Positions 54,613 through 62,612 of a stretch of DNA of 64,000 nucleotides are shown piece after piece (the stretch's first letter is position 1; each line of letters begins with the position of its first letter). The stretch is taken from positions 2,356,001-2,420,000 of the forward strand of contig NW_027117342.1 of NCBI RefSeq assembly GCF_038025025.1, given 5' to 3'. This DNA comes from Phyllosticta citribraziliensis. Taxonomy: Eukaryota. The position numbers were made by a program, and so were the translations under genes. Under the pieces are notes generated by a model. The model was not told the origin of the DNA. It saw nothing but the letters and a program-made list of their open reading frames with translations, and made no database searches.

Positions 54613-57171
54613 ATCGCCAGTGCTCCCCCACGTTTCTCCTCCGCATCATGTCCGACATCGCCCCGGACCATTGCGGACTCGACCTGCCCTCCTCCGAAGC
54701 CGCTCACCACCACCACCATCGGTCATGCGCCGCTGGAAAGGTAGGATCCAGGGTCCCGCAAACCTTCGTCCAGACAAGGTGCTCCTTCGCATCTACTTTG
54801 CCTCATCATGGCCTCTCTGCGGCGCGAAACCCGTTGCTCGCCCACGCCCTGCTCTCTTCCGTCAGCCCCTACCGACCTACACCGTCGGGTACAACCGCTT
54901 CCACCTGGCCTCAGCCAGCTAGCTACTCTGCGCTGCGAACCCTCCCGCCGCGATTGCTTGATCGAATGGCCTAGCCTATTGATCATGGCGCCCCAGCCCG
55001 ACTGCCACGGCCAAAAAGACCTTCATTTCCACCTCCAACCTCAATGATCCTTGCTGCCCCATGGATGTGCAGATCCCACATCGCTGCCAGGATGAGCTGC
55101 ATGCTTCCGAGCATCCTCGCCCAGCCAGCCCAACCTAGTCATTCTCCATGATCCACCATCAACTTTTACCTTCACCAGTCGTCCTCCACCACTGCCTCGG
55201 CAATTCCACAGCTCCAAACTCAATCTTTTTCCATCCTTTTTCCATCTGCCAAGTGCCTTCTTCCGCACACCGGGCGCAACGTGCAGCGTTGCATCGGTTG
55301 AGACCGTTCCGACGCCAAGTGGCCTGCCTGCTCGTCAAGCTTCACAAATCTGGTGGCCTAATGCCCTTTTGCCTGTGCCGTGCTGGCCAAGGCCCGTCGG
55401 CGACGACCAGACGAGTTGTTGTCCTCTTTTTGCCTCGCTGGGGTCCTCCCAGCCGAATACAGCCTTAAATAGCCAGCAAAGGCAGATTGCAAGGTGAGCT
55501 CGAACAGGGAGACGTCGAATTGACTTCTCCTCGGCGCCAGTGCCGCCCACTGACCGACCTTACATGAAGACATGAGCCACAATCGACCATTGACTTTGAA
55601 ACCTCTGGCTGCGCAGATCTTTCATCCGTTCAGGAGTTGACATAGTCGAACACCGTCTTCCAATGCTGAACCGATGGAGCTCCACACGCTGAAGACTGAC
55701 CTGAAAACAACCCTCTCGCGGTCGACCATCCTTAATATTTGGCCTCGCAGACCCTTGTCGTCACGGAGATATGCCGCGAATTACCGGACTCGGAAACGAC
55801 AACCGGCACAAGCGGTACAAGCACGTCACACTTGCAGCCGCAAATATTCATCAGACAGATGAAGAAGAAAAACCACACTAGAACGAAGTCCTACCAGCAT
55901 ACAAGAATACCAGCAGTAAAAAGCACTGCACTCAAGAGGCAGTTACAAACATCGCTCCCACCCCATCTAATCCTAACCGCCCATAGAAACAGAGAGAGAA
56001 AGAAAAATGACAGAGAGCCATAGTATTCACCAGCGCAGCACGAGCAGGACAAACTGAACAAAAGACACATCAGAAAAGCACCACCGCAGCGTCAGCTCAC
56101 AACAAACAGAGTAGAGCAGAAGCACGACGCACGTACAAGGCCAGCCACTACCTGTAGCAAAGGAAGGCAGTCATTCAACACTTCTCTACTGACCTACCAA
56201 CCTACTTGACACAGCAGTTGTCGGCATGTTACCCGAAAGCCGGCTGGAAGAGTATAGGAAAACCAAAACAAGAGTGGAATACCCATATAGGGTCCACAGT
56301 ACACGGCGCACCATCGGATGTTCGAATATCAGCTGTAGGTAGGACGGGTAGGATAGCTAATCAGCGCTGCACATCCTTGTACGCAGCACAAAACAGATAG
56401 AGAGACTCTACATTACACTCTAAACATCTTTTCTTACCTCTCCCACATTTATCTTCTTTCCTCTACTCCACTCCCGTGCAAGTTGGAAGGGAAATTGGTT
56501 CGCTTGTTTTGACGTACGCTTGAAGGCTGGTGGCTAGTATAGGACCACGACCACGCTACGAGATGGGGAAAATAGACGTCATGTCGATCTACGCAGGCAT
56601 GTCACGTTGATGAGAGGGCGTCGCAAAAAGCTGGGCAGTTCAGAGCAGAGCTACGCAACGCAACGCCCCGAGCAAGAAATCCACATCAACCACGCAAAGC
56701 CATCAAAAAGCTCACAAAACACCTCAATCGCAACAATCAAGATCAGCCTTGTAATCCGGTAGTATTCGTCATGCCAATGGGTATCTATCCCCGGGTTTAT
56801 GCCAATTGCCTCGTCATCAAAAATCATCCTCGTGCCACTGTCTTGCTGGTCCAGTGTACGCGTCCACCGCGTTCATCGCCCGCCCAGCTCGTAACCTCTG
56901 CGCTCGCTCGCTCGCTCATCAAAAGCAGACAACCCCAAAGCCAGTAATGCTTTTTTTGTTTTGCACGCCCAGTAGTCGCAACCTGCTGCTCCAGAATGTC
57001 CGAACGCATCCAGAAGATCTCAATCATTCGCAATGGAATCTTTGGTTTTGAGGGACGAGTCGAGTCGAGTGAAGTGAGTCCAGACGCTCTGCGATGATGA
57101 TGAAGTCGTCAGTGAATGCTGCTGAGCGGCGCAAGTGGGCGCGCGGCGGGGCCAGGGACGACGACGCACCT

Positions 57172-59884: not shown

Positions 59885-60606
59885 GGGGCGTGTGCAGCGA
59901 CAGGACAGGTGACTTGTGGATAAGCGTGGAAGAAGGGAAGGCGGTCCTAAAAAGAGCTTACTGTACGGTGTTTTGGGTCTACATGTGCCTGGGCAGGCAT
60001 TTTCATCACATATTTTGTTTTCTGGTTACGGACGATTACCCAGCCGAGGAGCGAAGTTTATACGATAGACAGCGTGCAAAATCAAGATACACTCATCTCT
60101 CACCGTAAGTACAGTACGAGGCACCCGACGTGTGGTCGATGATGGGGCTTGGCGGGTAGGGTACGGTAGGTCACGCCGAAGGGACCGGAATGAGCCAGCC
60201 CAGTGGACCTCAGCGCAGCCAGGTGCCGTGGGCGGGCGTAGGGCACGAGGTTGGGTTTTGGTTCTTTGAAACAGAAAAACGGGCGCAGGGCACGGCATGT
60301 TGGGGCTCTGCATGGCTGGACTGGAAGCATCCGTCGGGTGCAAGTGCAATGTAGTGGGCGTCACGTGGGCGACGTCGCTCGCTCTCAGTCAAGTCAGGCA
60401 GGTGAGGTCTCCTCCTAGCCCGGTGCCGTGCCTTTACCTCACGAGCCCGCAACATCTAGCTCCACTTGACGCTCTCGACACTCCCCTTGGCAGCCCACCC
60501 ACCCCGACCTCACCCTCTTTCCGTTCCCATATAACCTGCGGCTTTTCCACGACGGTCCTCCCCTTCGCTTCTCCACTTCCCCGTTTCCTCCTCCACAACC
60601 GCCACG

Positions 60607-61612
60607 ATGAACCCTGAGTAGTACGTATCCCCACGCTATCTCCGCCGCGCTGCGCTGCGCCTTTGTCGCCCACCGCTGCACCGCTCGTTTTCGACGCCGA
60701 TGATGACGCTTGCCGCTAACGCTGTCGCTCCGCAGAGTTCTGCCCTCTTTTTCCCTCGCTGCAACCCGTGCCGACGCTGGCCTGTTCGAGAGAGCCCCTC
60801 GGATGCCTAGCCCAGCAGTCGACCGCTAACCACGCTCCGCCACCAGATACGACTACCTCTTCAAGCTGCTCCTCATCGGCGACTCCGGTGTCGGCAAGTC
60901 TTGCTTGCTGCTCAGATTCGCGGATGACACGTACACCGAGAGCTACATCTCAACCATCGGCGTTGACTTTGTATGTTGGGGATGCTGCGGGTGAGCCCAG
61001 CTGCGGACCGCTAACGACCCAACAGAAGATTCGGACGATCGAACTCGACGGCAAGACCGTCAAGCTGCAGATTGTACGTCATGGTTTCCGGAGCGCACCG
61101 ACATTTGGTTGCTGACTTGAAGTGAACAGTGGGACACGGCTGGCCAGGAGCGTTTCCGCACCATCACCTCGTCCTACTACCGCGGAGCCCACGGAATCTG
61201 TGTCGTCTACGATGTTACGGACATGGACAGCTTCAACAACGTCAAGCAGTGGCTGCAAGAGATTGACCGCTACGCTACCGAGGGTGTGAACAAGCTGCTC
61301 GTCGGCAACAAGTCAGATATGGCGGACAAGAAGGTCGTGGAGTACACTGTTGCGAAGGTAGGATGACGGCATCATGATTCAACGGAGCCGCCGGTGGGTG
61401 CTAACACGGAACTGCAGGAGTTCGCCGACAGCCTCGGCATCCCCTTCCTCGAGACGTCGGCCAAGAACGCTTCCAACGTCGAGCAAGCGTTCTTGACCAT
61501 GGCCAGGCAAATCAAGGAGCGCATGGGCACGACCCAGGTGAACAACAAGCCCACGGTTCCCATCGGCCAGGGCCAGGGAGTCCAGTCGGGCTCTGCCAGT
61601 GGATGCTGCTAA
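60607..61612 (+). CDS. YPT1: Rab1-family small GTPase Ypt1
   Basis: [48 protein letters not shown]-terminal CC. Five exons; the first intervening sequence is 60618-60846. Confidence 0.98.
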
Positions 61613-62612
61613 GCGCAATGTGACAGAGGGGCGGCGTGGAGACGAAGAGCCGGGGCGCCTCGCGGAGACGACTGCAGGCAACCAGCACGTCCGGCACAGA
61701 AGTCATGTTCAAATGCGTCCTTTTGCATGGTAGATGGCGGGCAATCCTTTGGATGCGCACGGGGTTTTCTGGTCACCTATTAATGGTATGGCAACGCAGT
61801 CGGACACGCCAGAATGCGATTCAGGATGCCACGGTGAATAGGATTTTTGGCGACAACGGTGTGCGCAAGTGGATTTCCCGAGTCAGCTTTTTTCCTTCTT
61901 TCTTTCCTTGTCCTTTACCCCAACGATTTCTCTGTGGATCCATCATTGAGTGTGGGCTTCTCTGCGTATGTTAGTGCACTCATCAACAGAATCTTCGTAC
62001 ACCCATTGGTGCCGTCCTGCCCTGTGATCTGAATCGCACAACAGCGCGTGAGGAAAGCATAGGGTTGGCTTTTGGTATATATTCGTTTTGGAATTTTCTA
62101 TTTCGCATTTTGCCAAGGGGCAGCCGAGGGTCAGTCGGGCGCTAGAGCCCCGTAGAGTGCGGTAGTGGTGGTCGAGTCGGGCTGCTACGTGTATCGGCTT
62201 CCATCGTCCTGGGCAGGGGGCTGGTCACGCAGACGGGCCATGCGAAGGTTTCTGGAGGGTCCGATTGGATTTGATGGCATTCCTCAGGGCCAATATAAGA
62301 GACTCTGCAGGCAACGACGCCCATTGTGGCTTGTGAGGGTGGCTGTGCGCTGCATTGATCCACTGGACCCTTGGGACTTGCGCGTTGCATCATGGGCAAT
62401 CAATCGACTTCCTTCTTACAAGCACAGCCGGTCAAAGTATATGAGGGCCCGACATCCCTGACCACCTCCTCCGACTCCTCTCCTTAGGTTGTCGCTCCGC
62501 CATCACGTCCGTCGACCGGATCCCTTCATCTGTCGTCTCCCCCCGACACCCTCTCGCCGCTCGCCGCCTCGCCCGCGTCCGGTCCGCCCACCACCAGCCC
62601 GTCGTGATCGCC

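Follow-up and report, generated by a model that had tools for sequence, protein, structure and literature searches.

A probable donor-split spliceosomal twin intron of type [D3,4] in the YPT1/Rab1 gene of Phyllosticta citribraziliensis

The window analysed here is a 64,000-nt stretch of the Phyllosticta citribraziliensis assembly GCF_038025025.1 (contig NW_027117342.1, positions 2,356,001 to 2,420,000 of the forward strand), and all coordinates below are counted from its first letter. On its plus strand lies a gene for a small GTPase of the Rab1/YPT1 group, for which a five-exon model was built with the following parts:

60607-60617, plus strand: exon 1, reading ATG AAC CCT GA and ending in phase 2 (sequence, RNA joint 60617>60847, CDS model)
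60847-60970, plus strand: exon 2, which opens A TAC GAC TAC and encodes the P-loop GDSGVGKS (sequence, RNA contigs, family match, CDS model)
60971-61025, plus strand: intron 2, 55 nt (CDS model)
61026-61073, plus strand: exon 3 (CDS model)
61074-61129, plus strand: intron 3, 56 nt (RNA-contig joint 61073>61130)
61130-61357, plus strand: exon 4 (CDS model, PF00071 and PDB matches)
61358-61417, plus strand: intron 4, 60 nt, donor GTAGGA (RNA-contig joint 61355>61416, cut +2)
61418-61612, plus strand: exon 5, including the stop codon (PF00071 match)

The start codon stands at 60607, ATGAACCCTGA ends at 60617, and the five exons together yield a 606-nt coding sequence for a protein of 201 amino acids that begins MNPEYDY and terminates in CC. 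The Ras family PF00071 was matched by exons 2, 4 and 5, and among the PDB matches the best solved relatives of the exon 4 product were Rab1A (E about 4e-40) and yeast YPT1. The product has the Ras-family fold with a P-loop, is closest to Rab1/Ypt1, and carries the C-terminal CC prenylation motif expected of a Rab1/YPT1 small GTPase. The gene model is backed by the joints for introns 3 and 4 that were recovered in RNA contigs. The donor of intron 4, GTAGGA, is off-consensus (G at +4 and A at +6, with the G at +5 kept), yet this intron is spliced in the RNA contigs of two of the sequencing runs described below, X2 and X3.

The first intervening sequence occupies 60618-60846 and measures 229 nt, which is the size of two units (115 + 114 nt); introns 2-4 of the same gene are 55-60 nt long. 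Read as an intron nested within the donor of another, it divides into three parts:

60618-60620, plus strand: GTA, nucleotides 1-3 of the split donor of the putative external intron (sequence; GTA or GTG in 6/6 orthologues; record 15 of run X9 ends exactly at 60620)
60621-60735, plus strand: putative internal intron of 115 nt, with donor GTACGT at 60621-60626, branch element GCTAAC at 60715-60720 and acceptor CAG at 60733-60735
60736-60846, plus strand: putative remainder of the external intron, with AGT at 60736-60738 (donor nucleotides 4-6), branch element GCTAAC at 60825-60830 and acceptor CAG at 60844-60846

A spliceosomal twin intron (stwintron) had been proposed at this site from the letters of the window, and every coordinate and motif named in that sequence-only reading was present. 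All three signals of a canonical U2 intron, namely a donor, a branch element and an acceptor, are present within the internal unit, its GCTAAC lying 16 nt ahead of the acceptor G; the outer GCTAAC lies 17 nt ahead of the CAG at 60846. The external donor is split as GTA/[60621-60735]/AGT, and when its halves are rejoined by removal of the inner intron they make a perfect consensus donor, GTAAGT, for a 114-nt external intron. That external intron reads GTAGTA at its 5' end before the removal and would be canonical after it, with GURWGY, a branch element and HAG. A blastn search for a repeat or mobile origin of 60621-60735 or 60736-60846 within the window returned matches of 12-25 nt only, and the inner and outer units had only words of 7-8 nt in common (blastn).

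Splicing from the donor at 60621 to 60846 had been predicted to bring a stop at codon 5, and translation of that form indeed gave MNPE-stop; the unspliced RNA and the RNA from which only the inner unit has been spliced read MNPE-stop as well. A further combination, the donor at 60621 with a cut after 60849 (GAG TA/C), was considered and rejected, as it would leave an intron with TA as its last letters and the RNA reads GA/ATAC.

The strength of the genomic donor was scored against the frequencies tabulated for Fusarium, which cover 2022 introns of 226 core genes (PMC5677156, Table 1). GTAGTA is off-consensus at +4, +5 and +6: the Fusarium donors have G at +4 in 4% of cases, G at +5 in 93% (T in 3%) and T at +6 in 66% (A in 14%). 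Donor positions 1, 2 and 5 are the ones that the stwintron authors regard as strictly biased (PMC9024468). Judged by its letters, GTAGTA is a very poor donor.

Twenty-four sequencing runs were listed for comparison, all of them as contigs, and four (X1, X2, X3 and X9) were compared with the window over 60500-61650; contigs of this kind drop rare forms and allow neither the rates nor the order of splicing steps to be read. Run X1 gave 0 contigs over this interval. Run X2 behaves as RNA, because depth is absent from every intron, and three of its contigs carry the joint 60617>60847 (skipping 229 nt, GT..AG), with loose ends that read exon 2 letters after 60617 and ...ATGAACCCTGA before 60847. 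The same joint was found in a single 60-nt contig of X9 at a depth of 370.7; this run is an RNA-Seq library recorded as a plant metagenome, and its source is a close relative and not the strain of the window. X3, whose source organism is more distant, has a loose end before 60847 with the last letters ...ATGAATCCCGA. By X2, X9 and the loose end in X3, the mature mRNA has lost the intervening sequence entirely, with exons 1 and 2 joined at the external sites, and the mature junction CCCTGA/ATACGAC forecast from the window was thereby recovered. It follows from this joint that the final cut falls at the poor GTAGTA and not at the strong GTACGT three bases downstream, and that the only in-frame product requires a cut before GTAGTA. 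The mis-splice joint 60620>60847 was listed in none of the four runs (X1, X2, X3 and X9).

Evidence on the step between pre-mRNA and mature mRNA came from X9, where seven contigs have breaks that fall exactly at the borders of the inner unit. The four records that bear on the question are:

Record 16: mature joint, 60 nt, depth 370.7
Record 15: 60588-60620, 33 nt, depth 11
Record 17: about 60591-60765 (aligned over 60592-60761, with 1 letter before and 4 after), 175 nt, depth 4.3
Record 18: 26 loose letters followed by 60779-60876, 124 nt, depth 17

Record 17 has a first 31-mer that ends at 60621 and a last one that starts at 60735. In record 18 the loose letters open with AGT at the homologue of 60736 and match 60736-60761 at 21/26 places, from which it follows that the relative carries a 17-nt deletion of 60762-60778; apart from this deletion, X9 and the window differ at 9 places over 170 nt. 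In the X9 outer unit, 5 of the first 26 places differ, and the inner branch site and both borders are unchanged.

Unitigs with k=31 were simulated from slices of the window under three mixes of molecules. A mix of pre-mRNA, inner-spliced intermediate and mature mRNA produced unitigs of 60, 33, 175 and 141 nt together with a 60-nt junction unitig, and 141 nt less the 17-nt deletion of X9 equals the observed 124 nt. Pre-mRNA and mature mRNA only gave the 60-nt mature-joint unitig and one unitig of 289 nt, and pre-mRNA, mature mRNA and the mis-splice 60620>60847 gave 59, 33, 59, 286 and 31 nt. The four lengths observed in X9 (60, 33, 175 and 124 nt) all fit only the mix that contains the intermediate. 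Depth in X9 is also higher on both sides of the inner intron, at 11 over the GTA after exon 1 and 17 over the outer unit, than within the inner unit itself (4.3). Two SNPs were considered as the cause of the breaks and rejected: this would require a SNP at exactly 31 nt from each inner border, and the depths run the wrong way, since 11 and 17 should then have fallen relative to 4.3 and not risen.

The intermediate junction itself, 60620>60736, was listed in none of the four runs X1, X2, X3 and X9. The corresponding junction unitig is absent from the X9 records; in the right half of this unitig, 5 of the first 18 letters are not those of the window, and this divergence may explain its absence. 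No intermediate was seen in X2, where depth is very high yet zero over 60656-60811 in contigs that drop rare forms. The check for an intermediate in RNA had been suggested along with the twin intron: the contig ends, lengths and depths of X9 fit it, and the letters across 60620/60736 were not seen. We regard the X9 contig pattern, with the intermediate deduced from ends, lengths and depths, as good but not final evidence for an inner-spliced form.

To place the split donor in a comparative frame, metagenome contigs were scanned with the exon 4 protein, giving 567 relatives, from which 80 loci were kept. The start of exon 2 could be matched by pattern in 47/80 loci; in the other 33, exon 2 lay off the contig or was too diverged. 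By layout, the 47 loci comprised 7 with AG/ATAY, 13 with AG/Y, 20 with a contiguous E-Y (cDNA or no intron) and 7 others. The AG/ATAY loci are L001, L002, L004, L005, L006, L007 and L035, of which L005 was left out because it ends inside the intron. The sequence-only reading had named the absence of a split donor from orthologues as evidence against it, and the split donor, GTR-[intron]-WGT, proved to be kept in 6/6 metagenomic orthologues with a readable 5' end.

In these six loci, exon 1 ends ...GA and is followed by GTA or GTG and then by a canonical donor (GTACGA in one, GTATGT in two and GTAAGT in three), each with a branch element and HAG behind it. Directly after the inner acceptor stands AGT in five loci and TGT in one, and the rebuilt donors are GTAAGT (three), GTGAGT (two) and GTATGT (one), so that the halves of the split donor vary only inside the consensus GUR/WGY. 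Across the seven sequences formed by the window and the six loci, fixed criteria found exactly one qualifying internal site in each; the inner unit ranges from 60 to 183 nt and the outer from 78 to 136 nt, the inner donor has G at +5 in 7/7, and the intron interiors are unalignable, with exon 1, the string GA-GT-R-GT-A-n-G and exon 2 invariant. L035 has 76% identity in exon 4 and starts MASQE, yet has the same twin layout. The GTG of L002 and L035 is incompatible with a Tyr codon, which indicates that the three bases evolve under the constraints of a splice signal rather than those of coding sequence. Conserved internal sites within unalignable interiors suggest that both the internal acceptor and the WGY that follows it are under selection.

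A second scan, of genome contigs (125 relatives, 79 loci kept), contained no fungal orthologue with a usable 5' end; its loci were Asgard and bacterial small GTPases and a few tiny stray contigs. One of its loci, L101, is a 393-nt contig in a bacterial isolate assembly with 36 residues at 92% identity to this Rab1 exon, and is probably stray eukaryotic DNA. In another, L144, residues 1-37 were matched at 78% on a 5.8-Mb contig of a metagenome-assembled genome labelled Trueperaceae.

How often such an arrangement arises by chance was estimated at two levels. A relaxed [D3,4] motif pattern matched the 64-kb window 3 times, and 200 shuffles gave a mean of 2.8; the two further matches are on the minus strand, with starts at 54710 (316 nt) and 14046 (132 nt), and their number fits chance. 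With the exon borders fixed, an internal branch element and HAG followed by WGY appeared in 266/5000 shuffles of the window's intervening sequence (about 5%), and a qualifying internal site was found in 4.5-10% of 5000 dinucleotide-preserving shuffles per sequence. For the seven sequences together the product is about 4e-9 and Fisher's combined p is 4e-4, neither of them a strict probability as the sequences are related, and the independence of the orthologues is argued only from their unalignable introns. Since the motif match is at chance level, it is reading frame, RNA and orthologues that carry the case, and not the motif.

We assign a probability of roughly 0.85 to the reading of 60618-60846 as a [D3,4] spliceosomal twin intron of the donor-disrupted kind, with a 115-nt intron between donor nucleotides 3 and 4. 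Splicing would proceed by intron definition, the nearest strong sites, GTACGT at 60621 and the CAG at 60735, pairing first so that the internal intron would be removed; nearest-site pairing of this kind has been described for fungal stwintrons (PMC7138796). The removal would join GTA to AGT and so place a consensus GTAAGT directly after exon 1. In the second reaction this donor would be used with the branch element at 60825-60830 and the acceptor at 60846, giving GA/A TAC and a protein that reads MNPEYDY. We infer that these steps take place in this order and that the two-step path is the main productive one, mainly because the conserved WGY has no role unless the second step matters.

A simpler account is that 60618-60846 is one ordinary 229-nt intron, with the 5' end GTAGTACGT, removed in a single step from the weak GTAGTA at 60618, the inner sites being a side path or unused. 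The mature joint is indeed GT..AG over 229 nt, the joint 60620>60736 is unlisted, about 2.8 such motif patterns per 64 kb are expected by chance, and intron 4 of the same gene likewise has an off-consensus donor, GTAGGA. However, a one-step removal would have to start from a GTAGTA without the +5 G found in 93% of Fusarium introns (PMC5677156), it offers no reason why 6/6 orthologues keep an internal HAG followed by a WGY that completes GTR, and the lengths and depth steps of X9 misfit the single 289-nt unitig that it predicts; we consider it unlikely. Still less probable, and in our estimation very much so, is that inner splicing forms an unproductive or regulatory branch, with the stop at codon 5 and degradation of the RNA, and that productive mRNA is made by one direct step. 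It would agree with the MNPE-stop of the unspliced, intermediate and mis-spliced forms alike, and with the T-R-A stop that the mis-splice gives in 7/7 sequences because GTR precedes an exon 2 beginning with A (one-step use of the strong inner donor leads to an immediate TAA or TGA in all seven); mis-splicing to a distal site has moreover been reported for [D1,2] stwintrons (PMC9024468; PMC12403724). Against this, the donor, once rejoined, matches the consensus perfectly and has a branch element and acceptor of its own, and the intermediate should therefore splice well; selection on WGY after the inner acceptor (7/7) is sensible only if the second step matters, and the joint 60620>60847 was unlisted in all runs.

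If the first intervening sequence is a donor-split twin intron, it joins a small and unevenly populated set. Types [D1,2] and [D2,3] (PMC5639578) and types [D5,6] and [A2,3] (PMC9024468) have been demonstrated, [D4,5] and, sensu lato, [D6,7] and [D7,8] have been published (PMC7138796), and almost all known stwintrons are [D1,2], the other types being rarely met (PMC12403724). The types best known to the sequence-only reading ([D1,2], [D2,3] and [D5,6]) were correctly given, but the list was incomplete in that [D4,5], [A2,3], [D6,7] and [D7,8] are also in print. Under the published naming rule (PMC7138796) the case in the window is called [D3,4], a label that was not found in the main-text sections consulted from the stwintron literature. 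The core stwintron papers had no mention of YPT1 or of a GTPase, and a YPT1 twin intron was likewise not found in further literature searches. Twin introns are thus an established, if rare, class, and the split position seen in the window was not found reported in the sections consulted.

In the recursive splicing of animals, at ratchet points, a first reaction rebuilds a 5' splice site and a second reaction uses the rebuilt site. The first step there uses the donor of the upstream exon, and the exon end together with the GT of an AG/GT makes up the rebuilt site. A rebuilt 5' splice site would be common to both systems; in the window, by contrast, the donor for the first step is intronic, 3 nt beyond the end of the exon, the internal site reads CAG/AGT, and the donor would be rebuilt from two intronic halves. 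Because its first step would proceed without the exon's own donor, the case in the window is not recursive splicing in the animal sense.

Four published stwintrons invite closer comparison. The bioDA [D2,3] stwintron of Sordariomycetes resembles the twin intron proposed for the window in that the donor of its external U2 intron is interrupted by an internal one, in its two consecutive splicing reactions, in its conservation across a fungal class and in its old intron position (PMC5639578). It differs in being split between donor nucleotides 2 and 3, in lying in another gene and in sitting at the older canonical intron's own position, whereas the mature junction in the window is offset by 3 nt (PMC5639578). 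In the reticulon-like gene of Lipomyces lipofer, a [D4,5] stwintron, named under the same nomenclature and split at the position adjoining that of the window, likewise has units of similar size, 158 + 162 nt compared with 115 + 114 nt (PMC7138796). Unlike the window, it is split as GUGA/GU and occurs in a single yeast genus, within an N-terminal extension of low conservation, and its intermediate was sequenced by RT-PCR, where that of the window was deduced from contigs (PMC7138796).

The rtnA [D5,6] stwintron of Pezizomycotina is, like that of the window, an old [D] stwintron that forms the first intervening sequence of a widely conserved gene, but it is split after G5, and its unspliced outer site keeps the +5 G where the window has T (PMC6616335; PMC9024468). 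In the DHA1 antiporter gene, [D1,2]/[A2,3] stwintrons tie nested introns to discordant intron positions with the same protein, as in the window; the shift there is of 1 nt, through alternative loss of overlapping internal introns, against an offset of 3 nt here, and no alternative [A]-type path is evident in the window (PMC5587772).

The offset is measured against the 13/80 Rab1-like metagenome loci (L009, L016, L017, L024, L025, L029, L038, L039, L042, L055, L059, L071 and L074) that have a single intron after the TA of the Tyr codon, GARTA/GT...AG/Y. The 5' side was seen in 9/13 of them, with a canonical donor directly after GAR TA (as in GAATA/GTGAGT and GAGTA/GTGAGT); the exceptions before the donor are GAC TA in L042 and GAG CA in L055. 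This donor position is that of the window's inner donor, after 60620; removal of the twin intron leaves its mature junction 3 nt upstream of that point (GA/A TAC). The shared donor position implies that the inner unit has kept an intron position that is widespread and apparently old. What looks like the addition is the stretch from AGT to CAG, together with ATA, a lead taken from the letters of the window and its relatives. Such an addition would differ from the published route, in which new sites arise within an old intron and its outer borders are unchanged (PMC7138796), and the 3-nt offset recalls the stwintron-based shift of 1 nt (PMC5587772). L016 and L017 have the same intron start near position 1770, with the Glu codon GAG in one and GAA in the other before the canonical TA/Y intron; that Glu-codon base is free in these two lineages and is G in 7/7 twin-intron sequences.

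Taken jointly, these observations allow a broader reading, which we put forward tentatively and hold to be more doubtful than probable. The locus would then represent the first example of type [D3,4], of ancient origin and fixed, in much of the filamentous ascomycetes, within an essential gene, Rab1/YPT1; a second unit would have been added behind an ancient phase-2 intron whose donor position was kept, the exon junction would have slid by 3 nt with the protein unchanged, and Rab1 output would be subject to an inbuilt gate, set by the order in which the two splicing steps occur.

A [D3,4] stwintron would fill the sole split position missing from the published series [D1,2], [D2,3], [D4,5] and [D5,6]. 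Gene finders trained on GT..G5 donors would tend to choose GTACGT at such a locus and to call a stop at codon 5 or mis-start the protein, and wrong automatic annotation has already been noted for [D1,2] stwintrons (PMC5587772). The finding is of use in gene annotation, and its interest lies mainly in splicing and intron evolution. Stwintrons are rare natural tests of site pairing by intron definition and of the birth, loss and shift of introns, and a highly conserved trafficking gene, whose product Ypt1 has been reported essential in yeast (PMC2120609), makes for easy comparison over many genomes. Whether introns slide is an old question, to which the 3-nt offset between this junction and the canonical intron found in other lineages is relevant, and a slide of 3 nt without change to the protein would, if true, be a natural case of intron sliding through intron nesting.
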